DNA from: Candidatus Hadarchaeum sp. | Lineage (GTDB): Archaea; Hadarchaeota; Hadarchaeia; Hadarchaeales; Hadarchaeaceae | Reading direction: 5' to 3' | Assembly (NCBI GenBank): GCA_020725895.1 | Contig: DYTO01000006.1 | Coordinates: forward strand, 17,725 to 41,724 | DNA: 24,000 nt | In this document: in pieces, positions 2,497-23,433 of the stretch | How the letters are laid out: every line of letters starts with the position of its first letter | Numbering within the stretch: the first letter of the stretch is position 1 | The notes under the pieces: generated by a model | The model's database searches: none | What the model was told of the DNA's origin: nothing | What the model saw: only the letters and a program-made list of their open reading frames with translations | Made by a program: the position numbers and the translations under genes

Positions 2497-2562
2497 AGCC
2501 CAAAAAACCGCATTGTGAAACCGTTTTATGTGTGCAGTTGAAATGTCTGCGGGGAACAACAG

Positions 2563-2841
2563 ATGAACTTGCCCAAAAAAATAAGGACATACTGCCCAAC
2601 GTGCAAGAAGCACACAGAGCATAGCGTGTCGCAGGCGAAGAAGCGTCCAGCGCGAGCATTGAGCTGGGGACAGCGACAGTTCAGGCGCACACAGAAGGGT
2701 TACGGCAGCCAGCCCAGGTCTGAGCAGCACAAATTCTTCAAGACAACGAAGAAGATAACGCTGCTCTTGAAGTGCAGCAAGTGCAACAAGTCGCACCCCC
2801 TCAAAGGATTCAGGAGCAAGGCGGTAAAGTTCGGTGAGTGA
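2563..2841 (+). CDS. rpl44e: 50S ribosomal protein L44e (eL42)
   Basis: 92-aa basic protein with two CxxC pairs (CPTCKKH ... CSKCNK) and KRPARALSWGQRQFRRTQKGYGSQ, typical of L44e. A TATA-like TTTTAT lies about 35 nt upstream. Confidence 0.9.
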   Translation: MNLPKKIRTYCPTCKKHTEHSVSQAKKRPARALSWGQRQFRRTQKGYGSQPRSEQHKFFKTTKKITLLLKCSKCNKSHPLKGFRSKAVKFGE

Positions 2842-3019
2842 GATGAAAGCGAAGTTTTTGAAGGTAAGATGCACGGGTTGCGGGAACGAGCAGTCAGTGT
2901 ACAGCCACGCCAGCACCATCGTGAGATGCAATGTCTGCGAGAAGACCCTTGCCACGCCTACAGGGGGGAAGGCCGAGATGAAGGGGATAGTGATCGGGGC
3001 GGTCGAGCAGAGTGGTTAG
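2834..3019 (+). CDS. rps27e: 30S ribosomal protein S27e (eS27)
   Basis: Zinc-ribbon pattern KVRCTGCGNEQSVYSHASTIVRCNVCEKTLATPTGGKA. The start is either GTG 2834 (overlapping the rpl44e stop) or ATG 2843. Confidence 0.85.
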   Translation: MSEMKAKFLKVRCTGCGNEQSVYSHASTIVRCNVCEKTLATPTGGKAEMKGIVIGAVEQSG

Positions 3020-4755: not shown

Positions 4756-6000
4756 TTGAACTTGAGACCTTTCCACGTCGATCTGCACATACACTCGAAG
4801 TATTCCGGCGCGACATCACAGCGGATGGACATAGAGACAATTGCCCAGCAGGCGAAGCTGAAGGGCCTGGCGATAATAGGCACAGGAGACGTTTTTCATC
4901 CCGTTTGGTTCGAAAGCATCAAAAAGAGCCTTTCAAAAATCGACGAAGGAACTTTTGAACACTCTCGCTACGGCACACGCTTCGTGCTCTCTACGGAAGT
5001 CGAGGACAAGGACCGGGTCCACCACTTGATATTTTTTCCATCCGTGAGCGCCGTCGAAAGCGTCAGGGAAGTTTTTGCGAAGCATTCGCGCGAAATAGAC
5101 CTCGACGGCCGGGCCACTCTGAGCATTCCAGCAACCGAGATAGCGGACGTCGCAGTCGAGCATGGATGTCTCGTCGGCCCTTCCCACGCGTTCACTCCTT
5201 GGACGAGCATGTACAAGGAGTTCGACTCAATCGGCGATTGCTACAAGGATTCGGTCGGCAAGGTGAGTTTCTTGGAGCTCGGGCTCAGCGCGGACACGGA
5301 CCTCGCGGACAGGATCTCGGAACTTTCGGAGATAACCTTCATCTCATGCTCGGACGCCCACTCGCCTTGGCCCGACAAGCTCGGGCGGGAGTTCAACCGC
5401 ATGGAGCTGGACGACGCCACTTGGGAGGAGGTAGTTAAAGCGATAAGGCGCGAGGGAGGGCGCAGGATTTCACTTAACGTCGGGTTCGACCCGAGACTCG
5501 GAAAGTACCACCTCACCGCCTGCTCGCAGTGCTTCAAGCAGTTCGGGTTTGACGAGGCGAAGAAGTTGAACTGGAAATGCGACATTGACGGGGGCTGGGT
5601 CAAGAAGGGTGTTATTGACAGAGTGAACGAGCTCGCGGATTTTCCCGAACCGAGGCACCCGCCCCACCGTCCACCATATTTGAAAATCGCACCTCTAGCC
5701 GAGGTCGTGGCGCTGACGATCTCCAGCCCAGACCCCCACTCGCCTGAAGTGAGCGACGTCTGGCAAAAGCTCGTCAGGAAATTCGGCAACGAAATCTTCG
5801 TCTTGGTTGATGCGCCGCTCGAATCACTTGTCGAAAGTGCCGGGCCGCGGTTCGCAGCAGTTGTAAAAGCATTTAGGGAGAGAAATTTAAGGGTGGTAGC
5901 AGGTGGCGGAGGCCAGTACGGGCGCTTGGAACTCCCGGGAGAGTTCTCGAACGTGCTGCCGTCTCCATCGCAAAGGAAACTTTCGGAGTTCGGAATATGA
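4756..6000 (+). CDS. endoQ: Endonuclease Q (PHP-domain nuclease with Zn ribbon acting at deaminated bases)
   Basis: HVDLHIHSKYS PHP start, GPSHAFTPWTSMYKEFDS, LELGLSADTDLAD, SDAHSPWPDKLGREFNR, DPRLGKYHLTACSQC...WKCDIDGG and a GGGGQYG tail closely recall Pyrococcus EndoQ as I remember it. The start is TTG. Confidence 0.8.
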   Translation: MNLRPFHVDLHIHSKYSGATSQRMDIETIAQQAKLKGLAIIGTGDVFHPVWFESIKKSLSKIDEGTFEHSRYGTRFVLSTEVEDKDRVHHLIFFPSVSAVESVREVFAKHSREIDLDGRATLSIPATEIADVAVEHGCLVGPSHAFTPWTSMYKEFDSIGDCYKDSVGKVSFLELGLSADTDLADRISELSEITFISCSDAHSPWPDKLGREFNRMELDDATWEEVVKAIRREGGRRISLNVGFDPRLGKYHLTACSQCFKQFGFDEAKKLNWKCDIDGGWVKKGVIDRVNELADFPEPRHPPHRPPYLKIAPLAEVVALTISSPDPHSPEVSDVWQKLVRKFGNEIFVLVDAPLESLVESAGPRFAAVVKAFRERNLRVVAGGGGQYGRLELPGEFSNVLPSPSQRKLSEFGI

Positions 6001-9562: not shown

Positions 9563-9964
9563 CTATATCTTAGACATGTGATGTCGTCCAAGAGTCCTTA
9601 ATGCAAGGACTATTATCGCGGCTGCCGAGAACGTCGCGACGTTCGCCACCATGGAGTTCAACGCCGTTCCGATCGATAGGGCGCCAGCGGTGTTTGCACC
9701 TGCTGTGAACACGTTCATTTTGCTGGCAATCAAAAGTCCAAGGGAGACGACCACTATGACGTAGATCTCTTCCTCGATCTTCTTTGAGGTCGACATGAAG
9801 AATCCTATCAGTAGTCCGAGACCCGAGAATCCAAGCGTTACCAACGTAGCAACGTCGCCAGCGAGACCAATCAAACCGACGGCCAAACCGGCGATTACAG
9901 ACCCAACTAAGCCCAATATGAACAGATACCCTGCAATATGGGACAAATCATCTTTTAGAAGCAC
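9563..9964 (-). CDS. Small integral membrane protein (about 4 TM segments), function unknown
   Basis: 133-aa G/A/L/V-rich ORF with four hydrophobic stretches. The GTG start is preceded by GGAGGT with 6-nt spacing. I recognise no family. Confidence 0.6.
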   Translation of the reverse strand: MLLKDDLSHIAGYLFILGLVGSVIAGLAVGLIGLAGDVATLVTLGFSGLGLLIGFFMSTSKKIEEEIYVIVVVSLGLLIASKMNVFTAGANTAGALSIGTALNSMVANVATFSAAAIIVLALRTLGRHHMSKI

Positions 9965-10589: not shown

Positions 10590-11261
10590 TTATTCGACAG
10601 ACACATAGAAATCGAAAACTTTATTGAAAGCCGAAGCAAATGTAGGAGGGTCATTCGGGCCGCGATTTTCGGGGACTACATCGTATGGGTAACCATGGCC
10701 GTTTCCACCCGCTTCATCGCTGTGCACCACAACAAAATCCCAATCGAGATTTAATTCCCGTGATTTTTCGGCAGTTCTAAGCACGACTTGTTCATACTCC
10801 CATTCATTGTCCGCATAAGGGTTGTTGAACTCCAAACCCGCCTTCCAGCCAAAACTCTTGATCAGGGCAAACGCTTCTGAATCTGCCAGTTCATGCCAGC
10901 CTTCGGCGTTCTCGAATTGACTGGAATTATCCCAATTCTTGTCAAACTCGATACGGATCCCTTCGAAATTGAGATTTTCGTAACCCCTTGGATCGTTCTC
11001 CATCGTGTTGTCAAGCGCCTCGTAAGCATCCATCCAATCCTTGTTACTATCATAGTCGCGTCTCTGCAAGAGGGCATCGCCCAAATAGAACTTCATCGTC
11101 GGGTATTCCGCCTGGATGGCTTTCATGTATTCCAACGCAACGTATACATTGTTCTGAAGACCGCGCTCGAAATCTCCGGAAATAACACTATGGAGTTTTA
11201 TGAGTATTTCCGGGCGTCCATCGGTGAAGAGTTCGTCACATACATCGTCAATGAGACCCAA
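10590..11261 (-). CDS. Hypothetical acidic, Trp/Tyr-rich protein; possibly the 3' part of a disrupted gene
   Basis: 223-aa ORF with a TTG start (the first ATG is about 45 codons in). Alternating beta-strand-like hydrophobic runs (ILIKLHSVI, VYVALEY, GIRIEF, FALIKSFGW, WDFVVVH) suggest an alpha/beta barrel-type enzyme. I recognise no family. The DNA looks lower in GC than its neighbours by eye. Confidence 0.5.
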   Translation of the reverse strand: MGLIDDVCDELFTDGRPEILIKLHSVISGDFERGLQNNVYVALEYMKAIQAEYPTMKFYLGDALLQRRDYDSNKDWMDAYEALDNTMENDPRGYENLNFEGIRIEFDKNWDNSSQFENAEGWHELADSEAFALIKSFGWKAGLEFNNPYADNEWEYEQVVLRTAEKSRELNLDWDFVVVHSDEAGGNGHGYPYDVVPENRGPNDPPTFASAFNKVFDFYVSVE

Positions 11262-11286
11262 GGCGTACCTGGATGAGCTCCAAACC

Positions 11287-11649
11287 CTAGTTGTCTTCCG
11301 GATAGGTTATCGTATCGGTTCCATCTGACGTCCCATACATCTCCCAAGGCACGAAATCTCCCTTGGTCTCCACCGCATGTATCAACAACTTAACACCGCG
11401 TTCATGCAAGACTGGCAGTATCAACCTCAGGTAAGCCTTGTGGAGCTCTTCGTCACCCATATCGCCGAAGTTGTCTTGCAGCAAGCGCAAAAACTTCCGT
11501 CCCATGCCGTGCTCGGCACCCGTCGTTTTGAACAACTGCTCGTGAAGGAAATAAGCGTCCATGTTGTTCAGAGCCTGGCTCCAATCCTCGTCGTTGTACC
11601 ATCTCGTCAACATGTCGGGGACAAACTCCGGTTCGTCGTCGTTTTCCAT
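11287..11649 (-). CDS. Hypothetical acidic protein; possibly the middle part of the same disrupted gene
   Basis: 120-aa ORF (MENDDEPEFVPDMLTRWYNDEDW...GVKLLIHAVETKGDFVPWEMY) ending in TAG. It is in frame, across a single TGA, with an upstream signal-peptide ORF. It is one +1 shift away from the downstream 223-aa ORF. Confidence 0.5.
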   Translation of the reverse strand: MENDDEPEFVPDMLTRWYNDEDWSQALNNMDAYFLHEQLFKTTGAEHGMGRKFLRLLQDNFGDMGDEELHKAYLRLILPVLHERGVKLLIHAVETKGDFVPWEMYGTSDGTDTITYPEDN

Positions 11650-11685: not shown

Positions 11686-11808
11686 TCATCCCTCAACCGC
11701 GCCACCCTGGTTTGGCCCTGTTTCGTTTTGAATGTATGCTAAGGTTGCTGCAATTGATAAAACAAAAAGTAGCGCCATCATCAAAACTTTTTTTTTCCAT
11801 AACTTCAA
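11686..11808 (-). pseudogene. Orphan signal-peptide ORF (40 codons) ending at an in-frame TGA; likely the 5' end of a broken secreted-protein gene
   Basis: Hand translation from TTG 11808 gives (M)KLWKKKVLMMALLFVLSIAATLAYIQNETGPNQGGAVEG-TGA-PEIWFQHDDYVN-MENDD... This is a classic n-region plus h-region signal peptide. TGA at 11688-11686 is in frame with ATG 11649. The TTG overlaps the hcp stop (TTGA). Confidence 0.4.
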
Positions 11809-13457
11809 CCGAGTATTTCCTTTAGGTCATAATCCGCCCGGCCAATCGGCTTCAGTCCGAACTCCTTTACCAGCACGTCAAGCACATTCGGCGTCACGAA
11901 TGCGGGAAGAGACGGCCCCAGCCGGATATCCTTGACCCCGAGATAAAGCAAGGTCATCAGGATCGCCACCGACTTCTGCTCGTACCATGAGATTATGAAT
12001 GACATAGGCAACTCGTTTATGCTGATCCTTAACCTCTCGGACAAAATGCTCGCGAATCTAATCGCCGAGTACGCGTCGTTGCACTGGCCGGCATCGATAA
12101 GTCTTGGAATTCCATCGATTTCGCCCAAGTCCAGATGATTGAACTTGAACTTCCCGCAAGCAAACGTAATGACGATGCAGTCTTTAGGCAGCCTCTCCAC
12201 GAATTCCGTGTAGTAGTTGCGCTCGGGTTTCACCCCATCGCACCCCGCGACCACGAATATGCGCCTGATTTTCCCGCCCTTCACGTGTTCGATTATCTTG
12301 TCCGCGACCTCGCTCAGGGATTCGTGCCCGTACCCGACAGTTATGTTCTTGCCATCCGCGTCTTTGGAGAAGCCAGGCATCTCGAGCGCCTTCCCGATGG
12401 CTGGCGTGAAATCCTTGTCAGCCATGTGCCTCGTTCGCGGCCACCCAACCGCCCCCGCAGTGAAGATGTTGTCGCGGTAGGATTCGAGCGGCTTCTGGAG
12501 GCAGTTCGTGGTCATCACGATTGCGCCCGGGAATTTCGGGAATTCCTTCCACTGGTTCTGCCAGGCCGTCCCGTAATGGCCGTAGAAGTGCTTGAACTTC
12601 TTGAGATTAGGATAGCCGTGGGTCGGTAGCATCTCGCCATGCGTGTAGACATAAATCCCCTTCCCCTCGCTCTGTTCCAGGATTTTCTCCAAGTCCGCCA
12701 GGTCGTGCCCGGAGACGAGGATCGCCTTCCCCTTCTTGTGGCCGAGCGGGACCTTTGTGGGAACCGGTGCACCGTACGTCCCGGCGTTGCCGGCGTCCAG
12801 TAGCTCCATCGCCCTGAGGTTGATTTCGCCGGACTTGAGAACAATCGCCAGCCACTCCTGCAGAGGAAGTTTGTTTTCGACTATCTTGGTCAAAGCGTGG
12901 TGGAAAAATCCGTAAACGGCGTCGTCCTCCTGGCCGAGTATCTGCGCATGGTGGGTATATGCCGCGATTCCCCCTAGGGAGAATACAACAGTATCCTGAA
13001 GGGACTTGATGTCGGGATCATTGGCAGACCGGGCCGAAGTCCACATAACTTCCTTTCCCTGCCCGACCATCCCTTCCAAAGTGGCGGCCGGGAAGAAGTT
13101 CTCTGGCCCACCTCCGAAGTCCGTTTCCCCGCCCGCCGCAGCGACCTTCTTCTTGAGCGCCTCGCGCAGTTCCACGGCGCGGTTGACGTAGGCGAAGAAC
13201 CTTTCGGGGTCGAAATTGACGTTCGTGAGCGTCGTGAAAAGCGCTTCCGCGGTGAACCTGTTGACTTCCTGATCGACCATCCCGACCCTCCGCCCCTCCG
13301 AGGCCACGACGGAGAGCCCCTTCAAAGCGTGGGTGAGGAGATCCTGGAGGACTGCCACGTCGGCCAGCTTCCCGCACACCCCGGCCACGGTGCAGCCCTT
13401 TCCCTTTGATGTCTGTTCACACTGATAGCAAAACAAGCAAATCCTCTCGAAATCCAT
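11805..13457 (-). CDS. hcp: Hybrid cluster protein / hydroxylamine reductase
   Basis: N-terminal cluster motif CYQCEQTSKGKGCTVAGVCGK. The full-length 550 aa carries typical Hcp blocks (GHDLADLEKILEQ, VYTHGEMLPTHGYP, MTTNC, LDLGEIDGIPRLIDAGQCNDAYSAI). Confidence 0.9.
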   Translation of the reverse strand: MDFERICLFCYQCEQTSKGKGCTVAGVCGKLADVAVLQDLLTHALKGLSVVASEGRRVGMVDQEVNRFTAEALFTTLTNVNFDPERFFAYVNRAVELREALKKKVAAAGGETDFGGGPENFFPAATLEGMVGQGKEVMWTSARSANDPDIKSLQDTVVFSLGGIAAYTHHAQILGQEDDAVYGFFHHALTKIVENKLPLQEWLAIVLKSGEINLRAMELLDAGNAGTYGAPVPTKVPLGHKKGKAILVSGHDLADLEKILEQSEGKGIYVYTHGEMLPTHGYPNLKKFKHFYGHYGTAWQNQWKEFPKFPGAIVMTTNCLQKPLESYRDNIFTAGAVGWPRTRHMADKDFTPAIGKALEMPGFSKDADGKNITVGYGHESLSEVADKIIEHVKGGKIRRIFVVAGCDGVKPERNYYTEFVERLPKDCIVITFACGKFKFNHLDLGEIDGIPRLIDAGQCNDAYSAIRFASILSERLRISINELPMSFIISWYEQKSVAILMTLLYLGVKDIRLGPSLPAFVTPNVLDVLVKEFGLKPIGRADYDLKEILG

Positions 13458-13501: not shown

Positions 13502-13915
13502 TCACTTTTTTGGTGAAGCCCCGCGTTTTCTGTACATGTCCGCCATCCTTTGTTCGACCCGTGCCCGGAACTCTTCTTTTTCCAAATCCCCCCTCTTGAA
13601 ACTTGAAAAGTCAAAAAGGTCGTCCGTAAGGTGATCGGCGGTGTCCAGGTCCAAAACGCCCGCCAAGAGCGCAAGTTTGATGGTGAAAAACGCGCGAAAG
13701 ACGGAATCACGCCCGCGGTTATAGCATTTCCAAGCGCCGGGTTGCTGAATTTTCAGAACTTCCGCCACTTCGTCGAATGTCGCGTCCTCTTTTGACGAGT
13801 GAAAAAGGAGCGCTTTAAATGTCTTTTCCCTGAAATAAGACTGTTTTAGGAGCTCTTGTGCAAGGAGGCTTTCCTTCAACCAAGCCTCTGATTTGGCGAA
13901 TTCATCGTTCGTCAT
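13502..13915 (-). CDS. Small helix-turn-helix protein (sigma70-region-4-like HTH), function unknown
   Basis: 137 aa. REKTFKALLFHSSKEDATFDEVAEVLKIQQPGAWKCYNRGRDSVFRAF fits the pattern L..r....L.....s..EiA..l.i....v......R....l of region-4/LuxR-type HTHs. It has its own TTTATA box about 35 nt upstream, overlapped by a perfect palindrome. Only 44 nt separate its stop from the hcp start. Confidence 0.55.
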   Translation of the reverse strand: MTNDEFAKSEAWLKESLLAQELLKQSYFREKTFKALLFHSSKEDATFDEVAEVLKIQQPGAWKCYNRGRDSVFRAFFTIKLALLAGVLDLDTADHLTDDLFDFSSFKRGDLEKEEFRARVEQRMADMYRKRGASPKK

Positions 13916-13974: not shown

Positions 13975-14847
13975 TCATGGTTTGAAGAATCTTGCGAACC
14001 TGGATACCTTGTTTGCCCTCTTGACTATGCGGGAGTCGATTGGGGAGTCCAATTGTGCCGCCTGGCGGAGGGATTTGCTCGCCACTTTGAGTACCGCCCT
14101 TGGTATCCCCTTGCTTATCCTGCGTATTTCCTTGTACCCGTCCGGCGTTATCATCCCGTCCTGGGTTGAATAGCCCGCGTACTTCAGGCGGTACTGAATC
14201 AACTCCTTGACGCCGACCTCGTCAAGGCCGGTAATCGCTATGTGAATCTGTACCCTGTCGCGCAGAGCGGGGACTTTCCCTAGGAATCTCATCACCTGCT
14301 TGTATTCTCCGTTGAAAAGTACCGAAATATTGGGCAAATCGGCCAAAACTCTAAGAAATTCACCTATTTCTTGAAAATCAGCCGTACTTTCAGGCACATC
14401 ATCGATAATAATGGCTAATTTTTCCCTATGTTCGATTCCCCACCTCCTGAGGACGTCAAACAGGGTCGCCGAGTCCTTGCTAGAGTCGAGTTCAATTGCG
14501 AGGATGATTGCACGCAGGAACTCGTCCGCCGACTTGTACGCAGCGCCGTGGATCAGGACAGGTATCGCCTGCTTTTCAGGGTCCGAAGTCAAGACGCTTT
14601 CCTCGCGGAGCGCGGCAGTAAGGAATTCGCAGATAGTGGTCTTGCCCATCCCAAGGCCGCCCGTCAGCATGCCGACCTTCCCTTCGAGAAGCATCCTCTT
14701 TAGCTTTAGCATGTCAGTCGGCTGGATTGGGACGAATGCGTCCGGCGTCGGGAGCTCCGTCGAGAACGGGTCCTTTTGCAGCCCCCATTTTTTGAGATAT
14801 TCCTCGAAGCGGTAATCCTTGCCGAGCTTGTCCTCCCACAACGTCAT
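13975..14847 (-). CDS. AAA+ P-loop ATPase of the ExeA/GspA/TniB (AAA_22) type
   Basis: Start moved to ATG 14847 (MTLWEDKLGK), which forms an ATGA overlap with the upstream stop and sits 7 nt after GGAGGTG. Motifs are N-terminal WGLQKDPFS, Walker A LTGGLGMGKTT, Walker B KLAIIIDDV and the lid ISKGIPRAVLKVA. Confidence 0.75.
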   Translation of the reverse strand: MTLWEDKLGKDYRFEEYLKKWGLQKDPFSTELPTPDAFVPIQPTDMLKLKRMLLEGKVGMLTGGLGMGKTTICEFLTAALREESVLTSDPEKQAIPVLIHGAAYKSADEFLRAIILAIELDSSKDSATLFDVLRRWGIEHREKLAIIIDDVPESTADFQEIGEFLRVLADLPNISVLFNGEYKQVMRFLGKVPALRDRVQIHIAITGLDEVGVKELIQYRLKYAGYSTQDGMITPDGYKEIRRISKGIPRAVLKVASKSLRQAAQLDSPIDSRIVKRANKVSRFARFFKP

Positions 14848-15611
14848 TTGACCACCTCCACGGTCAGCTCGTACCCGAGTTCCGTTTTTCTGATATATCC
14901 CAGGCTTTCCATTCTCTCTAGAAACGTTTTGGCCACGATGTCCGAGCATTTTGCCCTGGATAAGAGGTCTTGGACCGTGAATTTCTTAAAAACAGTCATT
15001 GCAGAGAGTATTTCGCCAAAAGCAGCCCTTTGGGCAATTCCAGATGGAGAAAGGGCGTCTAAAATGGCGCTTCTCGTGATTTGGTTCGTGGGAACGACGG
15101 GTTTTGGTGCCTCATGGACTGCAACTTCATGGAGGGGTGCCGCGAGGAGCAATTTTGTTGTCCTTTCTCGCGATGGGATTTCTTTCGCGTGCAGCTTCGC
15201 ATGGCATTTCTGGCAAAGCGTGGCCAGATTTTCTGGATCGTTGCCGCCGCTATCGTCTTTTTTGTGCACGCCGAGAGGTCCCTTGCTCCCGCACTGCGTG
15301 CATTGGTAATTATCTCGGACTAAAACGGCTTTTTTCACCAAGTCCCAGTCGTCGCTGAGGTTTTTGAAAACGTAGTCCAAAAAAGACGTTTTTTCGTCTT
15401 TAAATTCAGATATGCCTTCTTTAATATCCTTTGTTAGATTTTCGCCACTAATAATACGATTAATTTCAGTTTCAGGTACCTTTCTATGCCCTTTTCCAAC
15501 TCGAATAGTGATGATATTTCCCTCCTTTTCCCACTTTCGGATCGTGTTTGGGTGCACTCCGAGTAGTGAGGAGGCCTTATACATTTTTCCATGTGCTTCC
15601 ATTTGCTCCAC
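14844..15611 (-). CDS. Three-module nuclease: excisionase/MerR-type HTH + HNH endonuclease + C-terminal winged-helix-like domain
   Basis: HTH: YKASSLLGVHPNTIRKWEKEGNIITIRVGKGHRKVPETEINRI. HNH: VLVRDNYQCTQCGSKGPLGVHKKDDSGGNDPENLATLCQKCHAKLH. Tail: VAKTFLERMESLGYIRKTELGYELTVE. Possible starts are GTG 15611, ATG 15602 (after GGTGGAG) or ATG 15584. A CTTTTATA box lies at 15650-15643. Confidence 0.75.
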   Translation of the reverse strand: MEQMEAHGKMYKASSLLGVHPNTIRKWEKEGNIITIRVGKGHRKVPETEINRIISGENLTKDIKEGISEFKDEKTSFLDYVFKNLSDDWDLVKKAVLVRDNYQCTQCGSKGPLGVHKKDDSGGNDPENLATLCQKCHAKLHAKEIPSRERTTKLLLAAPLHEVAVHEAPKPVVPTNQITRSAILDALSPSGIAQRAAFGEILSAMTVFKKFTVQDLLSRAKCSDIVAKTFLERMESLGYIRKTELGYELTVEVVK

Positions 15612-15926: not shown

Positions 15927-16619
15927 ATGGTTGCAAAATTCGACCTTCATATCCATTCAAACTATTCGGACGGCAAAGCCACCCCCGCGCTTATGGTGGA
16001 GGCTGCCGAGTCCCAAGGACTTGAAGCGGTTGCGGTAACCGACCATGGCCCGGACTTGAGCGTCGGGATAAAGAGGGCGGACATACCACGGGTGATTGAG
16101 GATGTGAGGCGGGCCGGGAAGGGATTGAAAGTCAAGGTTTTGCTCGGGTTTGAGACGAACGTGGTCAACGAATTTGGTGCCATCGACATCGACGATTCCG
16201 TTATCGAGCAAATCGACTTTTTGACTATGGGCATCCATTACATTTCCGGAGCCACCGAACCCAACGAGGTCGCCAAGGTGTACTTGAAGAGCGCGATTAG
16301 CGCAATCGACAAGAACCAGATAGACATCTTCGCCCACCCATTTTTCCTTCACGGACCACTTCTTCCGCACCTCGCTCCCGAGGAGATCGGGCGCTTCGTC
16401 AGGTTGGCCGCGGAACGCGGCACCGCGATGGAGATAAACGTCAAGTATCGGGCACCGGACGAGGATTTCCTCCGGCTTTGCCTGCGGGAAGGGGTTAGGC
16501 TGAGCGTCGGCTCAGACGCCCACTGGCCGGAAGAAGTAGGCAAGGTCGACTGGGCGTTGGAAGTTCTAGAGCGAATAGGAGCGAAAAAGGAAGACCTCGT
16601 CCTTGATAGTTTTCTCTAG
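15927..16619 (+). CDS. PHP-domain metal-dependent phosphoesterase (histidinol-phosphatase-like family)
   Basis: FDLHIHSNYSDG, AVTDHGP, and later HPF and GSDAH motifs, as in PHP hydrolases. Its TAG overlaps the hypE stop on the opposite strand (CTAG at 16616-16619). Confidence 0.75.
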   Translation: MVAKFDLHIHSNYSDGKATPALMVEAAESQGLEAVAVTDHGPDLSVGIKRADIPRVIEDVRRAGKGLKVKVLLGFETNVVNEFGAIDIDDSVIEQIDFLTMGIHYISGATEPNEVAKVYLKSAISAIDKNQIDIFAHPFFLHGPLLPHLAPEEIGRFVRLAAERGTAMEINVKYRAPDEDFLRLCLREGVRLSVGSDAHWPEEVGKVDWALEVLERIGAKKEDLVLDSFL

Positions 16620-17641
16620 CAAATTCTTGGGATGGGGTCGCCGGCCGGAGGGGGCACGACCCGGCTGCCACCGACCACAGTTTTCAATATTACCTTTCCA
16701 GGGTTATCTCGAGTCGCCTCGCCAATGACCTTGGCACCAGCTCCATACTTGGTCCTTCGAATCGCCTGTAGCACGGAGTCGCAGTCCTTTGCATCGACCC
16801 CCATCAATATTTTTCCCTCGTTCGTCAGGGTGAGGGGGTCGAGGCCCAGCATCTCGCATAGGTTTTTCACAGGCCTTGAAATCGGAAGCTCGGCTTCGTC
16901 AATCACGATTCCAACCTTTGACTTTGACGCGATTTCGTTCAGGGCCCCCGCGACACCGCTCCTTGTCGGGTCCTTCATCGCCGAGACCGTGCCTGCCTTC
17001 ATCGCTGCCTTGGCCAGGCCCCACAATGGCGCGACATCTGACTTCAGGTCCCCCTTGACTTTTATCCCCTCTCGGCTGCCGATTATCGTCGCACCGTGGT
17101 CGCCGATAGTCCCAGTGATAATGATTTTTTGCCCTGTCTTCAGCTGGGCGTCGGTCTTCAGGCTTTCAGCTATCCCAACTCCGGTCGTCGTTATGACTAT
17201 CCCGTCCAAGGCGCCCTTTTCCACGACTTTCAAGTCGCCCGTCACGATGGAAACGCCCGCTTCAACCGCCGCCTCGTTCATCGACCTGCATATCCTACGG
17301 AAGTCTTCCATCGGAAAGCCCTCCTCCATGACCACGGCGCATGCCATCGCCAGCGGTTTGCCACCCATCACGGAGAGGTCGTTCACGGTGCCCGAGACCG
17401 AAAGGTGCCCGATGTCGCCTCCAGGGAAGAATATCGGCTTCACAGTGTGGGCGTCCGTCGTGAAGACCAATGTCTTGTCGCCAATCGTGATCGCCGCGCC
17501 GTCGTCAAGCTCATCCAAACCAACGGGGCCGACCTTCTTGTGGGTGAACTCCTTCAGTACGATATCGACGAGCAATTTCATCATGGCAGTCCCTCCGCCG
17601 CCATGTTCCAGGGTTATTTTTTCATCGGGCATCGCGGCCAC
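16616..17641 (-). CDS. hypE: [NiFe]-hydrogenase maturation protein HypE
   Basis: PurM-like fold sequence with the diagnostic C-terminal PRIC motif (GDPIPRIC-stop). The start is GTG. Confidence 0.9.
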   Translation of the reverse strand: MAAMPDEKITLEHGGGGTAMMKLLVDIVLKEFTHKKVGPVGLDELDDGAAITIGDKTLVFTTDAHTVKPIFFPGGDIGHLSVSGTVNDLSVMGGKPLAMACAVVMEEGFPMEDFRRICRSMNEAAVEAGVSIVTGDLKVVEKGALDGIVITTTGVGIAESLKTDAQLKTGQKIIITGTIGDHGATIIGSREGIKVKGDLKSDVAPLWGLAKAAMKAGTVSAMKDPTRSGVAGALNEIASKSKVGIVIDEAELPISRPVKNLCEMLGLDPLTLTNEGKILMGVDAKDCDSVLQAIRRTKYGAGAKVIGEATRDNPGKVILKTVVGGSRVVPPPAGDPIPRIC

Positions 17642-17647
17642 CAGAAT

Positions 17648-18439
17648 TCATCCAGCCTTGACCAAGCGGGATTTCAGCTTCTCGGCGAGATCAGGCGGAA
17701 GCAGCATCGAGCCCGTGATCGAAACGTCCGTGCAGACGGCGACCGTCAGGCAGTCCGCGGCTATTTTACCAGATGTTAAGTTTTTCACGATATTCCTGAA
17801 CTTTATGTGCTTCCGGCCGATTTCCTCCACCCAAACCGCAACCTCGATCTCGTTGTCAATCCTGACCGGCGCGAGAATTTTCCCGGTCGTCTCGACAGTG
17901 GGGATGAAAATCCCGAACTTGTGGATTAGGGTCGCGTAGCTGAAGCCCAGCTCGTCAAGGAGCTCCTGCTGGGCGCGCTCGCAGAACCTGAAGTAGTTCG
18001 TGTAGTGCATGACCTGCAGGTAGTCTGTGTCAGAAAGCGAGATCTTGTACTTCCGCCTGAACGCAGCATCCGGCACCCTGATTTCCTTTTCCTCGGCCAT
18101 CTCTTCCATCTCCTCAGGTTTTACATTTTCAACTGATTCGTCTATCCCTAGTGTCTCCAGCAATTTATTAATTTCACCAGTCGCCTTCTCCTCCGCGGCG
18201 CCCTTCCCCATCCCGGTCTCCTGGAACTCCTGCGATAGGATGTCCCTGTACAGGGCGACGTTCTCCATGAAGTCCTTCAGGCTTAGTTTCCCTATCGCCA
18301 TGCCCGCGTGGATCATGACAAGGTCGTTCGGTGCGATGCCCTTCGCCGCGACGAGGACCTCCTTCTGCACGCCGCCGAAGTCGACGAGCGCCGTCAGCCC
18401 CTCGACGCTCAAAACCTTGGCCGGAACTCCCCAACACAT
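17648..18439 (-). CDS. hypC: HypC hydrogenase maturation chaperone fused to a C-terminal hot-dog (4HBT/YbgC-like) thioesterase domain
   Basis: The N-terminus MCWGVPAKVLSVEGLTALVDFGGVQKEVLVAAKGIAPNDLVMIHAGMAIGKL is HypC with the essential Cys2. An acidic linker follows. Then YKISLSDTDYLQVMHYTNYFRFCERAQQELLDELGFSYATL...VAVWVEEIGRKHIKFRNIV is the hot-dog thioesterase pattern. The whole is one uninterrupted 263-aa ORF. Confidence 0.8.
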   Translation of the reverse strand: MCWGVPAKVLSVEGLTALVDFGGVQKEVLVAAKGIAPNDLVMIHAGMAIGKLSLKDFMENVALYRDILSQEFQETGMGKGAAEEKATGEINKLLETLGIDESVENVKPEEMEEMAEEKEIRVPDAAFRRKYKISLSDTDYLQVMHYTNYFRFCERAQQELLDELGFSYATLIHKFGIFIPTVETTGKILAPVRIDNEIEVAVWVEEIGRKHIKFRNIVKNLTSGKIAADCLTVAVCTDVSITGSMLLPPDLAEKLKSRLVKAG

Positions 18440-18440
18440 C

Positions 18441-19661
18441 TCAGACGCCCTCCGTCTTCTCGTTCCTGGCCCAGATTGCGCAGACGCCCTCAGACGAGAC
18501 CATGCAGGGACCCCAGGGCTTCTCCGGCGTACACTCTTTCATGAAGAGGGCGCAGTCAGTTGGCTTCGCCACCCCCACGACGACCTCACCGCACCTGCAC
18601 CCGTGGGGCATGTCGTGCCCCCAGGGAACGCCGTGGTGTGCGTGGGTGTAGACGAATTCCTTCGGCGTGAGGTCCGGGATGTCGTAATACTCGAAAGCGT
18701 CATAAGGCTCCAGATATTCGGGCTTGAGCTTCATGCCGCTCGCCGGGATGAACCCTATCCCCCTCCATGCGGCGTAGGATTTCTCGAAAACCTCGCCGAT
18801 CAGACCTTTCGCAAGCTCGTTCCCTTCCCACACGACTAGCCTCTTGTACTCGTTCTTCACTCCCGGTTTTTTCTCATTTATCATTTGCAGGATCTGGGCG
18901 ATTGCCATCATTGCATCGAGCGGCTCGAAGCCAGCGACGACCGTCGGGAGGCCGTGCTCCTTCGGGAGGAACTCCCACTCGGATGCGCCGATTATCGCGG
19001 AGACGTGTCCAGGGGCGATCACTCCTCTTATCGGCAAGAGTCCGCGCTCCTGGTGAAGCTTTATCGTGTACTTCATCGCCGGCGGGGTCAGCCTCACGGC
19101 GCTCAGGAATTTCAGGTTTTCAGGGACCATCCCCTCCTTCAGCGCGAGCGCGTAGCTCGGTGCAGTGGTCTCGAAACCTATCCCGAAAAACACGCTGTCC
19201 TTCCCGCTCTCGCGAGCGTCCTTAACGGCGTCCAGGAAACTGTAGACGACCTTGACGTCCCCGCCCTCGGCCCTTGCCTCCTGGAGGCTTGCCGGGTATT
19301 GCTTTTTGGCGCTCCGCAGCCTGAGCGGGTCCCCGTAGGTGTAGACCCTCGTCCCATCCTGCGCGAGTCTCACGACGACGTCAACGTAGTGCGAAGGCGT
19401 GACGCAGACGGGGCAGCCGGGCCCGGCGATCACATCCAGGAATGGCGGGAGAAGGTCCCTTATCCCATAGTGTGTCGCGGTCCACTCGTGGGTGCCGCAG
19501 AAGTTCATTATCTTTATCCTGTCGCATTTCTCCGCCCGTCTGATGGCCTCGGCATGCCTCCAAATGACCTCTTTTAGCCTCAGCGCAAGCGGCAAATTCC
19601 GCCTGAAAACTTTCTCTATGGACGCTTGGTCCCAGGTATTGGCCTTCATTTTATATACCAA
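18441..19661 (-). CDS. hypD: [NiFe]-hydrogenase maturation protein HypD
   Basis: FCGTHEWT, GPGCPVCVTP, HVSAIIG, and the C-terminal Fe-S motif CRCGEV...PWGPCMVSSEGVCAIW. Confidence 0.9.
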   Translation of the reverse strand: MVYKMKANTWDQASIEKVFRRNLPLALRLKEVIWRHAEAIRRAEKCDRIKIMNFCGTHEWTATHYGIRDLLPPFLDVIAGPGCPVCVTPSHYVDVVVRLAQDGTRVYTYGDPLRLRSAKKQYPASLQEARAEGGDVKVVYSFLDAVKDARESGKDSVFFGIGFETTAPSYALALKEGMVPENLKFLSAVRLTPPAMKYTIKLHQERGLLPIRGVIAPGHVSAIIGASEWEFLPKEHGLPTVVAGFEPLDAMMAIAQILQMINEKKPGVKNEYKRLVVWEGNELAKGLIGEVFEKSYAAWRGIGFIPASGMKLKPEYLEPYDAFEYYDIPDLTPKEFVYTHAHHGVPWGHDMPHGCRCGEVVVGVAKPTDCALFMKECTPEKPWGPCMVSSEGVCAIWARNEKTEGV

Positions 19662-19720: not shown

Positions 19721-22036
19721 ATGACGGCAATTCGTTCTGAGATTTCGGTGAGCGGCCTAGTCCAGGGAGTCGGATTCAGGCCTTTTTGCTACAGGCTGGC
19801 CACGAAATTCGGTCTGAAGGGCACAGTCAGGAACATGGGTGACGCTGGGGTCCAGATAATCCTCGAGGGTGAGCGAGGCGCAATCGAGAATTTCATTCAG
19901 GCCCTCGGGAAGGAAAAGCCGCCCTTGGCGAGGATTGACGGAATCGGCGCCGAATGGAAACCAGCGACAGGCGAGTTCAAGGATTTCTCAGTTGTCGAGA
20001 GCGGGAAAGGCGGGCTCGGTCTCTTGTCCGTCATCCCGCCCGACATCGCCATTTGCGACGACTGCCTGCGTGAGATGTTCGACCCCAAGGGCCGCCGCTA
20101 CCGCTACCCATTCACAACCTGCGTCAACTGCGGCCCGAGGTTCACGATAATCCGGGACCTGCCATACGACCGCGAGCGCACATCAATGGAAGATTTCCCA
20201 CTCTGCGGGGATTGTCGCGGCGAGTACACGAACCCGTCGGACAGGCGATACCACGCGGAGCCGACATGCTGCTCAGCTTGCGGGCCGGAGGTCAGGCTCC
20301 ATCATGCGTCAGGCGAGTCGCACGAGGTCGAGGACCCGTTGCGTGAGGCATCGAAGCTCCTTGATGAGGGAAAAATCGTCGTGATAAAGGGGATCGGCGG
20401 GATGCACGTCGCGGCCAAAGTGACGGAGGACGGGCCGCTTCAGCGTCTGAGGGAGGCTTTCAAGAGGCCCCAGCAGCCATTCGCGATAATGTCGAAGGAC
20501 TTGGAAACTGTGCGAACGTTCGCAGAAGTAGGGGCGGATGAAGAGGAGCGCCTAAAGTCCCCGCAAAGGCCGATAGTGGTCCTGCGTTCAAAAATAGGCA
20601 AGATCTCAGAGCTCGTTTCGCCAGGCCTAGACTCGATTGGCGTCATGCTGCCGTACAACGGAATCCAACATATCATCCTCCGCGATGGGAAGGAGCCGGC
20701 ATACGTGATGACGAGCGCGAACCTGCCCGGCTTGCCGATGGTCCTCGAGAACGAGGATGCGATATCGAAGTTCGGAGGCCTCGTCGACTATTTCCTTTTG
20801 CACAATCGCAGGATAATCAATCGTTGCGACGATTCGGTCGTGAGGCTCACGGCAGGCGCGCCGGTTTTCCTCAGGCGCTCGAGAGGTTACGCGCCAATGC
20901 CGCTCGACCTTCAACTCCCGAAGGAGGCAAATGTTCTCGCCCTAGGCGCGGAGTTCGACGTCGTGGCAACGCTCCTGAAGGGCGGCCGGTGCTTCCCGAC
21001 GCAGCACATAGGCGACGTAAGCAAGCTTGAGACGATGGGTTATCTCAGGCAGGCCGTCGAGCGCCTGATGCGCCTGCTGAACTTGGAAAAAATCGATGTC
21101 GTCGCATGCGATCTCCATCCCCAGTACGCCACCAGCTCGGAGGCGGAATCGTTCGCCCGCGAGTTCAACGCGAAGCTTGTCCGCGTCCAGCACCACCACG
21201 CTCATCTCGCGGCCCTGATGGCAGAGCATGGCATCGACGAGATTGTGGGGATAGACGCCGATGGGGTCGGTTACGGCGCGGACGGGACTCTGTGGGGAGG
21301 AGAGGTGATGGTCGCGAGCCACAGGGATTTCGAAAGGGTCGGCGCGCTAGCGAGCCAGCCGATGCCGGGCGGTGACTTGGCCACGAGGTTCCCTGCGAGG
21401 GCTGTCGCGGGAATTCTCTGGGGCGCGCTCCAGCCGAAAGAGGTCGAAAATGTTCTGGGAGATTTCTGCCTTGAAGGTTTCAGGCAGGGCGAGGACGAGA
21501 TCAAGGCCGTCATCCACCAGCTTGAGATAGGGATGAACGTTTTCCGGTCATCGAGTTGCGGGAGAGTTCTCGACGCGGTATCGTGCATATTGGGAGTATG
21601 CCGAGAGAGGACATACGAGGGCGAGCCGGCGATAAAATTGGAGGCTTTCGCCAGGGGTGGCGATGAAAGCGGTTCAAGTTTCAAGTTTTCGCTGAAGCGC
21701 GAGAAAGGATTTGAGAGGGTTGATACTTCGAAGCTGCTCTTGGACGTTCTAGAGGCGATGAAGAAGGGGGATTCCAAGAGGGACATCGCCGCGCGCGCAC
21801 AAATTGAATTGGGGAGGGGCCTTGCGGAGCTTGCGGTCAAGGCTTCCAAAGCCAAGGGGATCGAGACCATCGGCGCAAGGGGAGGGGTTTTCTACAACGA
21901 TGCGGTATCGTCCGCCGTTTGGGATTTTGTGGACGGCGAAGGGTTGAAATTTTTGATGCACAGGCAGGTCCCGCCCGGGGACGGCGGCATCTCGATAGGT
22001 CAGGCTGTCGTCGCTGCCCACAGGTCTACTTCTTGA
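19721..22036 (+). CDS. hypF: Carbamoyltransferase HypF
   Basis: Acylphosphatase domain (VSGLVQGVGFRPF), two Zn-finger pairs (CDDCLREMFDPKGRRYRYPFTTCVNCGPRFT; CGDCRGEYTNPSDRRYHAEPTCCSACGP), a YrdC-like block (VVIKGIGGMHVAA) and a Kae1-like C-terminal domain. Length is 771 aa. Confidence 0.95.
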   Translation: MTAIRSEISVSGLVQGVGFRPFCYRLATKFGLKGTVRNMGDAGVQIILEGERGAIENFIQALGKEKPPLARIDGIGAEWKPATGEFKDFSVVESGKGGLGLLSVIPPDIAICDDCLREMFDPKGRRYRYPFTTCVNCGPRFTIIRDLPYDRERTSMEDFPLCGDCRGEYTNPSDRRYHAEPTCCSACGPEVRLHHASGESHEVEDPLREASKLLDEGKIVVIKGIGGMHVAAKVTEDGPLQRLREAFKRPQQPFAIMSKDLETVRTFAEVGADEEERLKSPQRPIVVLRSKIGKISELVSPGLDSIGVMLPYNGIQHIILRDGKEPAYVMTSANLPGLPMVLENEDAISKFGGLVDYFLLHNRRIINRCDDSVVRLTAGAPVFLRRSRGYAPMPLDLQLPKEANVLALGAEFDVVATLLKGGRCFPTQHIGDVSKLETMGYLRQAVERLMRLLNLEKIDVVACDLHPQYATSSEAESFAREFNAKLVRVQHHHAHLAALMAEHGIDEIVGIDADGVGYGADGTLWGGEVMVASHRDFERVGALASQPMPGGDLATRFPARAVAGILWGALQPKEVENVLGDFCLEGFRQGEDEIKAVIHQLEIGMNVFRSSSCGRVLDAVSCILGVCRERTYEGEPAIKLEAFARGGDESGSSFKFSLKREKGFERVDTSKLLLDVLEAMKKGDSKRDIAARAQIELGRGLAELAVKASKAKGIETIGARGGVFYNDAVSSAVWDFVDGEGLKFLMHRQVPPGDGGISIGQAVVAAHRSTS

Positions 22037-22433
22037 AAGTGACGAGCTTTACATGCTTGACCCCGCGCAGCGACTCAATCCTGTTCAAAAGATCCTTGAT
22101 GACCTCGGCCTGCCCGCTGATCATTATAGTCTCCATGCAGTTCCTCTCGTCGAGGTGCCAGTGCTGCACGGAGCCGACGACGGCCTTCGAGTGGTGCTGG
22201 ATGTCCGTGATCTTGTCGCCTATGCCCTTGATTTCGTGGTCGTAGACTATGACCGCCACCCCGAGCTGCTTCCCCTTCAGGTCGCTCCTCCACTTGTGCT
22301 CGGCTATGAAGTCGTGGACGGCGTCCCGGACTGCCTCAGAGCGGCTGACGTAGCCCTCAAGCTCAATCAGATTGTCAAGTTCATCCAAAAGCTCCTGCGG
22401 CAGCGTAAGGCTCGCGCGAACGAATTTCGTCAT
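22026..22433 (-). CDS. nikR: Nickel-responsive regulator NikR
   Basis: Ribbon-helix-helix N-terminus (RASLTLPQELLDELDNLIELEGYVSRSEAVRDAV) and a C-terminal metal site H-x-H-x5-C (HWHLDERNC). Start moved to ATG 22433 (GGAG 5 nt upstream) rather than TTG 22457. The 3' end overlaps the hypF end by 11 nt. Confidence 0.8.
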   Translation of the reverse strand: MTKFVRASLTLPQELLDELDNLIELEGYVSRSEAVRDAVHDFIAEHKWRSDLKGKQLGVAVIVYDHEIKGIGDKITDIQHHSKAVVGSVQHWHLDERNCMETIMISGQAEVIKDLLNRIESLRGVKHVKLVTFKK

Positions 22434-22521
22434 TCTATCTCCGATTAGATTCGGCAATCAACGCTTAAAATAAGCCCGCTAAACAACCTTATACCACAAA
22501 AATCATTTTATTTTAGATAGC

Positions 22522-23433
22522 ATGGAAAAACTCGCTGTTTTGATATTGGTGCTCTCGATGTTTGTAGTTAGCATCCCATCCGCGGAGGGGCTGAGCTACA
22601 ACGTCACGGTTGAAAACGACAACATAAGCGTGGCCGTCGACATCACGGTGAACTTCGACTTGGAAGTGATATACAACTCAATCGTCAGCAAGCTCGAGAA
22701 CATCGGAGTCCCCGCCGAATACATACCCTCTCTGGACGAGGTTTCCGCAACCGTTGAGAACAGGCTGGAAACGGTGGAGAACCTGCGCAACGAGTATCGG
22801 GATGAAATAGAGAACGCGATGAGCGAGATATGCGAGAACAAGATACGGGAATACGTGCCGGGCGTCGATGTGGAATACACAAAATTCATCTTCGACGTGA
22901 CCAGACAGGGATACGTTTTCACGATAGACCTCGAGATAGGGCTAGACTTGACTGGCGAGGGCCTTTTCAAGGCGACCTCGGAGGGGAGGCGCAGGATTGA
23001 TTTGAGGTGGAGAGCTTTTGCGGTCAATCAGGCAAGAAACGTGGCTGGGAAGTCATTTGACTCAAGATGGACTTTCATGAACCTTTCGGGATTCCAGACT
23101 TCGCTCGAAAATTGGCAGAGAAGTGATGAGAATGACAGGATCGTGCTCTCTTACACCACGGATTACCAGGTCGAGCTCCCTGAGTACGGGGTTGCGATAA
23201 GCGTTGATCCGATCGCCACGTTGGTCGGGCCCCCAGGCTCGGCAGGAGCATCGGTGACCGGTGATGAGATAGTTCTGGCGCTCCCAACGCAGCCGTATTC
23301 GTTCCTGCCGCCACTTTGGCTCGTTGCCGTGGCCTTGGTAGGTTTGGTTGTCGCGATTCTTTTCGTGGTACTGAAGTACACTTCGTTCAGGAAAGTCAAG
23401 ACGCCCGTGGCGCTTTTCATCGAAATTTTTTGA
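22522..23433 (+). CDS. Secreted, C-terminally membrane-anchored surface protein, function unknown
   Basis: N-terminal signal peptide MEKLAVLILVLSMFVVSIPSAEG and a C-terminal TM segment LWLVAVALVGLVVAILFVVL followed by a basic tail. I recognise no family. Confidence 0.6.
   Translation: MEKLAVLILVLSMFVVSIPSAEGLSYNVTVENDNISVAVDITVNFDLEVIYNSIVSKLENIGVPAEYIPSLDEVSATVENRLETVENLRNEYRDEIENAMSEICENKIREYVPGVDVEYTKFIFDVTRQGYVFTIDLEIGLDLTGEGLFKATSEGRRRIDLRWRAFAVNQARNVAGKSFDSRWTFMNLSGFQTSLENWQRSDENDRIVLSYTTDYQVELPEYGVAISVDPIATLVGPPGSAGASVTGDEIVLALPTQPYSFLPPLWLVAVALVGLVVAILFVVLKYTSFRKVKTPVALFIEIF

Follow-up and report, generated by a model that had tools for sequence, protein, structure and literature searches.

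A HypC hydrogenase maturation chaperone fused to a hot-dog thioesterase domain of the YbgC/4HBT class in uncultured archaea

Proteins of the HypC/HybG/HupF family, such as HypC from Thermococcus kodakarensis (2z1c) and the HypC of the HypCD and HypCDE structures 3vyr-3vyu, are known as single-domain proteins of about 75-100 aa. They share a Met-Cys start, an oligonucleotide/oligosaccharide-binding (OB) fold, the His residue of the VHAG motif, and a C-terminal helix, and their genes are located directly after hypD and beside hypE/hypF. All of these traits are found in a hypC gene contained in the 24,000-nt stretch of DNA from Candidatus Hadarchaeum sp. (contig DYTO01000006.1) analyzed in this work, hereafter referred to as the window, but the encoded protein differs from the known members of the family by the addition of a second helix and of a 165-residue part formed by a tether and a putative enzyme domain. 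The latter resembles the hot-dog thioesterases of the YbgC/4HBT class (1s5u and 5t06 from Escherichia coli, 5v10 from Pseudomonas aeruginosa, 1z54 from Thermus thermophilus, and 4k00, the 1,4-dihydroxy-2-naphthoyl-coenzyme A (DHNA-CoA) thioesterase from Synechocystis), with which it has in common the fold, the DxD motif of the catalytic Asp ahead of the central helix, and two further motifs, P..R.D and VC.D. In contrast to those enzymes, the domain in the fusion is never free-standing, it lacks a tol-pal or menaquinone context, and the Gly-rich stretch that follows the Asp residue in YbgC (D-x-G-G-V) is replaced by an invariant D-Y-L-Q-V-M-H-Y-T-N.

No description of a HypC-thioesterase architecture was found in the literature on HypC/hydrogenase maturation and thioesterases, nor among the titles and abstracts listed for hydrogenase maturation in Hadesarchaea, and the words 'fusion' and 'thioester' are both absent from a 2025 review (PMC12134894). 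The HypC-thioesterase fusion is, seemingly, undescribed so far. The gene and its parts are as follows:

17648..18439, (-) strand: complete hypC-thioesterase fusion gene, encoding 263 aa and ending in a TGA stop codon (open reading frame (ORF) list, two Pfam domains, and a 100% identical protein on record, P0001)
18215..18439, (-) strand: HypC domain, residues 1-75, with OB-fold (strands within 5-52) and first helix (54-74), holding Cys2 and His44
18146..18214, (-) strand: second helix, residues 76-98, the 'long HypC' extension (modelled helix 79-96; conserved alignment columns)
18065..18145, (-) strand: disordered acidic tether, residues 99-125 (low model confidence, no secondary structure at 97-126)
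17651..18064, (-) strand: YbgC/4HBT-class hot-dog thioesterase domain, residues 126-263 (Pfam, NCBIfam, phmmer, and Foldseek)
18023..18025, (-) strand: GAC codon of Asp139, the predicted catalytic residue (second Asp of SDTD; invariant in 27 orthologues)

The gene starts with ATG-TGT (Met-Cys) and contains zero internal stops, in line with the uninterrupted 263-aa ORF between hypD and hypE described in a first-pass annotation of the window. A first homology search retrieved 51 full-length protein clusters of 255-282 aa, drawn from NCBI, JGI, ENA and Logan assemblies, all with both Pfam domains and with identities of 40-100%. In addition, pattern and tblastn scans recovered the fusion at 24 loci of GTDB contigs, taken from one genome per species (185,579 species genomes), and at 23 loci of contigs from metagenomes. 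All 44 loci free of contig-end cuts encode one continuous ORF of 261-326 aa that includes the HypC part, as determined by hmmsearch, and P0052, seemingly a thioesterase-only protein, starts 22 nt from a contig end and corresponds to a clipped fusion. The idea that separate hypC and thioesterase genes were merged by a sequencing error, being thus an artefact of assembly or annotation, can be given next to no credit, since the same uninterrupted architecture is present in 51 independent clusters and in all uncut loci. The fusion is genuine, and a hidden stop or frameshift between two genes, a doubt raised at first pass, is excluded.

The N-terminal part of the protein was recognized as HypC by several methods. 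Pfam HupF_HypC (PF01455) matched residues 1-63 with an E-value of 1.9e-16 and 60.4 bits, above the gathering score of 28.5, whereas the score of NCBIfam model TIGR00074 was below its cut-off (33.7 vs 48). A phmmer search with this part matched the T. kodakarensis HypC structures 2z1c (9.5e-11) and 3vyr; Cys2 of the fusion (codon 18434-18436; the protein begins MCWGVP) aligned with Cys2 of 2z1c, with a residue-for-residue match from there on. In an alignment of 27 orthologues, H44 is invariant, and Cys2 is kept in every sequence whose N-terminus is complete. In an AlphaFold2 (AF2) model built on 27 orthologues, with a mean predicted local distance difference test (pLDDT) score of 86.5 and a predicted template-modelling (pTM) score of 0.54, the HypC part shows strands at residues 5-13, 16-20, 25-30, 40-44, and 47-52, followed by a helix at 54-74, with pLDDT values of about 90.

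The region between both domains had been regarded as an acidic linker of ca. 50 aa. This description is valid for the tether at residues 99-125, but not for residues 76-98, which form a conserved helix (G76, A82, A86, L97, and G98 are conserved in the alignment). Stand-alone HypC proteins (95-129 aa) have the same segment, and their match to the profile covers positions 1 to ~108. The tether, with pLDDT below 50 at residues 110-117, is the sole segment that varies strongly among orthologues, both in length and in sequence. The layout of the fusion is therefore that of an archaeal 'long HypC' (98 residues) followed by a flexible tether of ~27 residues and by the thioesterase (138 residues). As modelled, a disordered tether of variable length would fit with a reach either in cis or in trans; the pTM value of 0.54 implies that the relative placement of the two domains is not predicted.

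Profile and fold searches upheld the first-pass assignment of the C-terminal half to the 4HBT/YbgC hot-dog group. Pfam 4HBT_2 matched residues 135-255 (1.1e-11; 45.6 vs gathering 25.5) and Pfam 4HBT matched the thioesterase part (6.6e-07; 30.0 vs gathering 20.6). With E-values up to 0.1, the Pfam matches of the fusion were HupF_HypC, 4HBT_2, 4HBT, and a weak Acyl-ACP_TE, with no others; a HypX-type formyltransferase or crotonase domain was not among them. The NCBIfam model TIGR00051 matched the fusion with 3.6e-14 and a score of 53.1, which is below the cut-off of 68.7, so that the fusion is no member of that equivalog/subfamily by NCBI criteria. The scores of the tol-pal YbgC equivalog models were also under their cut-offs (50.3 vs 141.35 for TIGR02799, and 30.1 vs 185 for PRK10800), and the archaeal host and the hyp operon setting do not correspond to a tol-pal context. 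The best phmmer match of the C-terminal part to the PDB was 5v10 (8.4e-14), with further matches to 1z54, 2egi, and 1s5u. In the AF2 model the hot-dog domain spans residues 127-260, with pLDDT mostly about 90 and 65 at residues 141-150, and Foldseek comparison of this domain with the PDB identified 5v10, 1s5u, 5t06, 1z54, and 4k00 with E-values of ~1e-11 and target template-modelling (TM) scores of 0.84-0.90. The SgcE10 structure 4i4j was also among the matches.

Residue D139 aligned with the final Asp in the EDTD, AETD, and YETD motifs of the solved YbgC-type thioesterases 5v10, 1z54, and 2egi, and we take it to be the counterpart of the catalytic residues D18 of E. coli YbgC and D17 of Pseudomonas 4HBT. 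Conservation of the SDTD catalytic-Asp region, on which the first-pass annotation relied, was borne out by the 27 orthologues, which share D139, Y140, L141, Q142, V143, H145, Y146, and N148 without exception, as they do many other thioesterase positions. The mean identity to the window protein was higher in the thioesterase domain than in the HypC part (64.5% vs 46%), indicating that the thioesterase is under stronger constraint. Altogether, these sequence comparisons indicate that the C-terminal half is a hot-dog domain of the YbgC/4HBT class whose predicted catalytic Asp is conserved.

The fusion was found in Hadarchaeota/Hadesarchaea, in Nitrososphaerota/Nitrososphaeria, where the carriers are thermophilic, in 'Geoarchaeota', and in Desulfurococcales/Sulfolobales, the carriers being in all cases metagenome-assembled genomes (MAGs). 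It has stayed intact across three archaeal lineages even though identities in the N-terminal part have fallen to 30-47%. Database entries label these proteins either as 'HypC/HybG/HupF family chaperone' or as 'acyl-CoA thioester hydrolase', never as both. The motifs L[SA][DE][TM]DYLQV and IH[KRE][FY]GxF[IV]PT retrieved only fusions from the 185,579 species genomes and the metagenome contig collection, and no unfused copy of the thioesterase subfamily was detected in either of these scans. An exhaustive search with hidden Markov models (HMMs) over 1.84 billion 50%-identity protein representatives yielded just four fusion representatives, followed by a sharp drop in score: P0054, a stand-alone thioesterase, came next with 161 bits and 40% identity, ahead of generic thioesterases with 115 bits or less, including P0057 (115 bits, 36% identity). 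These searches indicate that the subfamily occurs essentially only as a HypC fusion.

P0054 (L027 75..536) is the sole free-standing thioesterase with a near-family motif, LSDTDYLRV, and its stand-alone nature was confirmed by in-frame stops upstream. It comes from an AT-rich organism, on contigs of ~1 kb where it is located beside a TENA/THI-4 gene, and it could represent the unfused ancestor type. P0057 adjoins a giant ORF and a PadR regulator. Among the outcomes envisaged in the first-pass annotation, the same fusion was found in HypC homologues, but no stand-alone thioesterase next to hyp genes was found. The candidates considered for such an arrangement were discarded, P0052 because it is a clipped fusion, and P0054 and P0057 because of their lack of linkage to hyp genes.

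In neighbour-joining trees, which are simple distance trees on short sequences and were relied on for coarse features alone, the thioesterase domains of the fusions formed one clade whose major subclades are the same as those of the N-terminal part. Such monophyly and matching of subclades point to one old fusion whose halves have co-evolved since then, and which probably moved later between phyla.

The domain was also found to be missing from some close relatives. A search with a short HypC query yielded 9 proteins, and stand-alone long HypC proteins showed 68-76% identity to the HypC part of the window protein, being thus as close to it as the fused orthologues. The stand-alone 'long' hypC genes of close relatives, encoding proteins of 111-129 aa, are the following:

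L029 4868..5212: stand-alone long hypC
L065 9825..10160: stand-alone long hypC
L061 2083..2472: stand-alone long hypC
L032 2396..2746: stand-alone long hypC

The loci L029 and L065-L067, whose HypC proteins have 114 and 111 aa, are collinear over ~20 kb with the fusion locus L001, with a common gene order (DUF6775, ThiI, JAB, aminotransferase ... hypD, hypC, TBP, ThiF, MoaE, radical SAM ... Lon_C), and the 111-aa hypC allele was present on ten contigs. Comparison by blastn revealed that ~600 nt, corresponding to the tether and the thioesterase, are missing in the L029/L065-type loci. The 114-aa HypC of L029 ends in ...PSPSNDF, matching the IPSNAF sequence at the start of the thioesterase in a fused relative, and this PSNDF remnant looks like a deletion scar. 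In locus L061 the gene order is hypD, hypC (129 aa, devoid of thioesterase), hypF, hypE. The tree of the N-terminal domain nests the thioesterase-less proteins in at least three fusion subclades, which suggests at least three losses of the thioesterase. Repeated loss with retention of hypD and hypC indicates that the thioesterase is accessory and that HypC as such can function without it. A separate observation concerns P0101 (260 aa), whose residues 154-227 correspond to a Hadarchaeota-type long-HypC segment without the N-terminal Cys region, joined to an unrelated N-terminal part and to a nonsense-looking tail; this gene call is probably frameshifted or chimeric.

These losses bear on the question of whether the two halves of the protein cooperate. 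A neighbouring housekeeping YbgC-like gene might have joined hypC through loss of a stop codon, with the halves remaining independent and the fusion persisting as a harmless arrangement or for convenient co-expression. The disordered tether and the lack of a predicted interface in the AF2 model would fit such an origin, as would the repeated loss of the domain without loss of hypC or hypD, the unrelated contexts of the nearest unfused relatives, and the generic nature of YbgC-type enzymes. However, the unfused copies of the subfamily expected in this case are missing, with one distant candidate, P0054, in the exhaustive search; in addition, the fusion has persisted intact in three archaeal lineages despite the divergence of the N-terminal part, and the thioesterase is more tightly constrained than the chaperone part. 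We consider the absence of mechanistic coupling rather improbable on this evidence; were the halves indeed functionally unrelated, the finding would come down to an unusual combination of domains in uncultured archaea.

Regarding the genomic context, the fusion gene of the window lies among the following hyp genes:

18441..19661, (-) strand: hypD, upstream neighbour of the fusion (Pfam HypD, 9.1e-120)
16616..17641, (-) strand: hypE, downstream neighbour of the fusion, with GTG start (Pfam AIRS and AIRS_C)
19721..22036, (+) strand: hypF, divergent from hypD across a 59-nt intergenic region (Pfam Acylphosphatase, zf-HYPF, Sua5_yciO_yrdC, HypF_C, and HypF_C_2)

The hypD stop codon (TGA, 18441-18443) is separated by 1 base from the ATG of the fusion (18437-18439), whose own TGA (17648-17650) is located 6 nt before the GTG of hypE. 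The hypE translation ends in PIPRIC, with the PRIC motif that the abstract of PMC12130793 names. In 26 of the fetched loci the gene directly upstream of the fusion is hypD; these loci belong to Hadarchaeota, to Nitrososphaeria-type MAGs, and to some Desulfurococcales. In L007 (5411..14157), L009, and L012 the gene order is MvhD/FlpD, small subunit, [NiFe] large subunit, HycI-type protease, hypD, fusion, hypE, and hypF, with HdrA-like and ferredoxin genes further upstream. This is an Mvh/Hdr-type hydrogenase operon of Nitrososphaeria-type MAGs in which the fusion is located within the structural and maturation genes. A second hypC was not detected by hmmsearch in the flanks of the 44 loci. All-against-all clustering of the ORFs from 25 loci revealed hypD as the only neighbour common to the clades, and no conserved formyl-CoA-forming enzyme was found near the fusion in this analysis.

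A different neighbourhood was observed in the Sulfolobales-type loci (L013, L016, and L018-L025; e.g. L018 255..10819), where the fusion is accompanied by a four-subunit-type 2-oxoacid:ferredoxin oxidoreductase (POR alpha/beta/gamma genes), IscS, IscU, a heavy-metal P-type ATPase, and two genes that look like a thioredoxin/DsbD-like membrane pair, with CxxC and SPC motifs. In L013 and L025 the oxidoreductase, membrane protein, IscS, IscU, and P-type ATPase genes are all co-stranded with the fusion. The oxidoreductase was considered as a partner of the thioesterase and rejected: the same neighbourhood surrounds the thioesterase-less HypC of L032, from the same lineage, and we read it as lineage synteny and not as a link to the thioesterase.

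The HypD proteins of the window, of L001-L012, and of L061 have ~400 aa. They are extended at the N-terminus and, immediately in front of the C-terminal CxC...C motif, carry an insertion with the consensus YTHAHHGVPW. Among the thioesterase-less loci, L032 lacks this insertion, L029 has it in degraded form, and L061 has it intact; in the fused Desulfurococcales it is different. The insertion was examined as a docking site for the thioesterase and discarded, as its presence does not follow that of the thioesterase. This result also concerns a possible non-catalytic function, in which the hot-dog domain would be an oligomerisation or docking scaffold that clusters HypC units or binds HypD, HypE, or the hydrogenase large subunit. 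Hot-dog thioesterases are usually tetramers, the matched YbgC-type entries of the PDB are oligomeric (2-8 chains), and surface-like motifs of the domain are very strongly conserved, all of which would fit a scaffold. Nevertheless, there is no variation at the catalytic Asp or anywhere in the active-site stretch, a constancy that a pure scaffold would not need, and the failure of the HypD insertion to track the thioesterase removes a candidate docking site; a purely structural role is accordingly judged very unlikely.

The function that we tentatively favour, with a confidence somewhat short of even, is that of a two-function maturation protein carrying an accessory, tethered thioester hydrolase that would act on acyl groups at the cysteines of the HypCD(E) scaffold. 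The HypC part would perform its usual job, holding the Fe(CN)2CO unit together with HypD and handing it over to the hydrogenase large subunit, and the tether would maintain an active hot-dog hydrolase at high local concentration on the scaffold. Its substrate would be acyl groups on scaffold cysteine thiols, chiefly that of the HypC N-terminal Cys, which as a 1,2-aminothiol should be unusually prone to acylation by acyl-CoA. The domain might remove off-pathway S-acyl adducts or, alternatively, turn over an acyl intermediate, in either case improving or protecting maturation in hot, anaerobic, acyl-CoA-rich cells while remaining dispensable enough to be lost. In favour of this reading are the identities of both domains, the invariant D139, the tighter constraint on the thioesterase, the single old origin of the fusion, the near-exclusive occurrence of the subfamily in it, the location beside hypD, the absence of a second hypC from the fetched flanks, and the disordered tether.

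Editing by hot-dog thioesterases is an established concept, exemplified by EntH/YbdB of enterobactin synthesis, to which the proposed clearing of HypC adducts can be likened. EntH/YbdB and the enediyne SgcE10/CalE7-type enzymes act on acyl groups held on assembly-line protein thiols; they differ from the fusion in being separate proteins that recognize the phosphopantetheine arms of carrier proteins, whereas a Cys substrate in HypC, HypD, or HypE is hypothetical. Regarding E. coli HypC, mass adducts have been reported that all depend on the N-terminal Cys, among them one of +26 Da, for which an S- or N-acetyl group is a possible origin, and one of +28 Da, of formyl size (PMC10847431). The authors of that study proposed that the CO precursor is delivered bound to this Cys (PMC10847431).

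Several observations weigh against a scaffold-directed hydrolase. The NCBIfam models of both halves score under their curated cut-offs, the AF2 model shows no confident docking between the HypC and thioesterase domains (pTM 0.54), and the closest unfused thioesterases, P0054 and P0057, are not linked to hyp genes. No hypD is present within 10 kb of the fusion in the Sulfolobales-type loci, the thioesterase has been deleted in close collinear relatives that retain hypD and long hypC, and thioesterase-less proteins are nested within several fusion subclades. Furthermore, hot-dog thioesterases normally recognize a pantetheine arm, and we know of no precedent for the recognition of an acylated protein N-terminus by one of them. 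If the domain merely edits mis-acylated cysteines, it would represent a novel form of quality control during the assembly of metallocofactors. The conserved fusion of HypC to an apparently intact thioesterase offers independent comparative-genomic evidence suggestive of thioester chemistry at the HypCD scaffold, circumstantially tied to the question of the CO ligand, and it provides a testable handle: a single polypeptide, a point mutant (D139A), and natural thioesterase-less sister alleles as controls.

The same adducts can be read in another way, with the hot-dog domain binding formyl- or acetyl-CoA and supplying or processing the CO ligand's precursor. The acyl group could be passed to the HypC N-terminal Cys via an Asp-anhydride intermediate or, in a second route, CO or CoA could be released at the iron site. 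This would constitute a dedicated carbonyl route of these anaerobes, as envisaged at first pass, analogous in its logic to that of aerobic HypX. HypX, which converts N10-formyl-tetrahydrofolate (N10-formyl-THF) into formyl-CoA and then into CO, is likewise an accessory maturation factor of patchy occurrence that brings CoA-thioester chemistry to HypCD, a likeness of functional analogy only (PMC12134894). In contrast, HypX is a separate protein of aerobes, with a formyltransferase and a crotonase-like domain that have no sequence or fold relationship to the hot-dog domain, whereas the hot-dog domain is fused to HypC in anaerobic thermophiles. A CO-ligand role would be consistent with the 2025 review, in which formyl-CoA is named as a candidate substrate and the source and enzyme of the anoxic CO ligand are not known (PMC12134894), and with the Cys-dependent, formyl-sized and acetyl-derived candidate adducts on E. 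coli HypC (PMC10847431). The occurrence of the subfamily only in fusion to HypC, its strong conservation around D139, and its patchy, dispensable nature in relatives, as in HypX, would also agree with it.

Other data argue against a role in CO-ligand supply. In addition to the lack of homology to HypX, no conserved formyl-CoA-forming enzyme is encoded nearby, hypD alone being common to the clades, and sister lineages without the domain retain hypD and hypC, so that the same clade must possess a further route to CO. To our knowledge, decarbonylase activity is not known for the hot-dog fold. On balance, participation of the domain in CO-ligand supply appears unlikely. The more specific proposal that it represents the enzyme still missing from anaerobic CO-ligand biosynthesis, or one of several missing there, such that an acyl group from formyl- or acetyl-CoA would be put on or processed at its own HypC Cys and then converted to the Fe-bound carbonyl on HypCD, is viewed as distinctly unlikely. 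If true, however, the fusion would be a natural 'Rosetta stone' indicating that the anoxic CO ligand is derived from a CoA thioester.

Over its 24,000 nt the window contains neither hypA nor hypB nor structural genes of a hydrogenase, and no tRNA or Rfam matches were obtained. The nearest relatives of its hyp proteins, with identities of ~70%, are found in Hadarchaeota MAGs, and the remaining genes are of archaeal type (primase subunits, GINS, aIF2-alpha, PAC2, and geranylgeranyl reductase). ORFs of 120-414 aa without a Pfam match (E <= 0.001) are located at 2449..2955, 4756..6000, 9563..9964, 10590..11649, 13502..13915, and 22053..23433. A PHP-domain phosphoesterase gene (15927..16619, (+) strand) is convergent with hypE, whose 3' end it overlaps by 4 nt, and gave no tblastn match in loci L001-L025 at E <= 1e-5. 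At 13975..15611, on the (-) strand, a gene for an AAA_22 ATPase (324 aa) overlaps one for a protein with MerR-type helix-turn-helix (HTH) and HNH endonuclease domains (255 aa). This pair, which may be a mobile or defence-type module, separates the hyp cluster from a gene at 11805..13457, (-) strand, encoding a 550-aa protein of the Prismane/CO-dehydrogenase family (Pfam, 2.8e-156). The latter gene lies ~3 kb from the hyp cluster and, judging by its length, probably encodes a hybrid-cluster protein rather than CooS.

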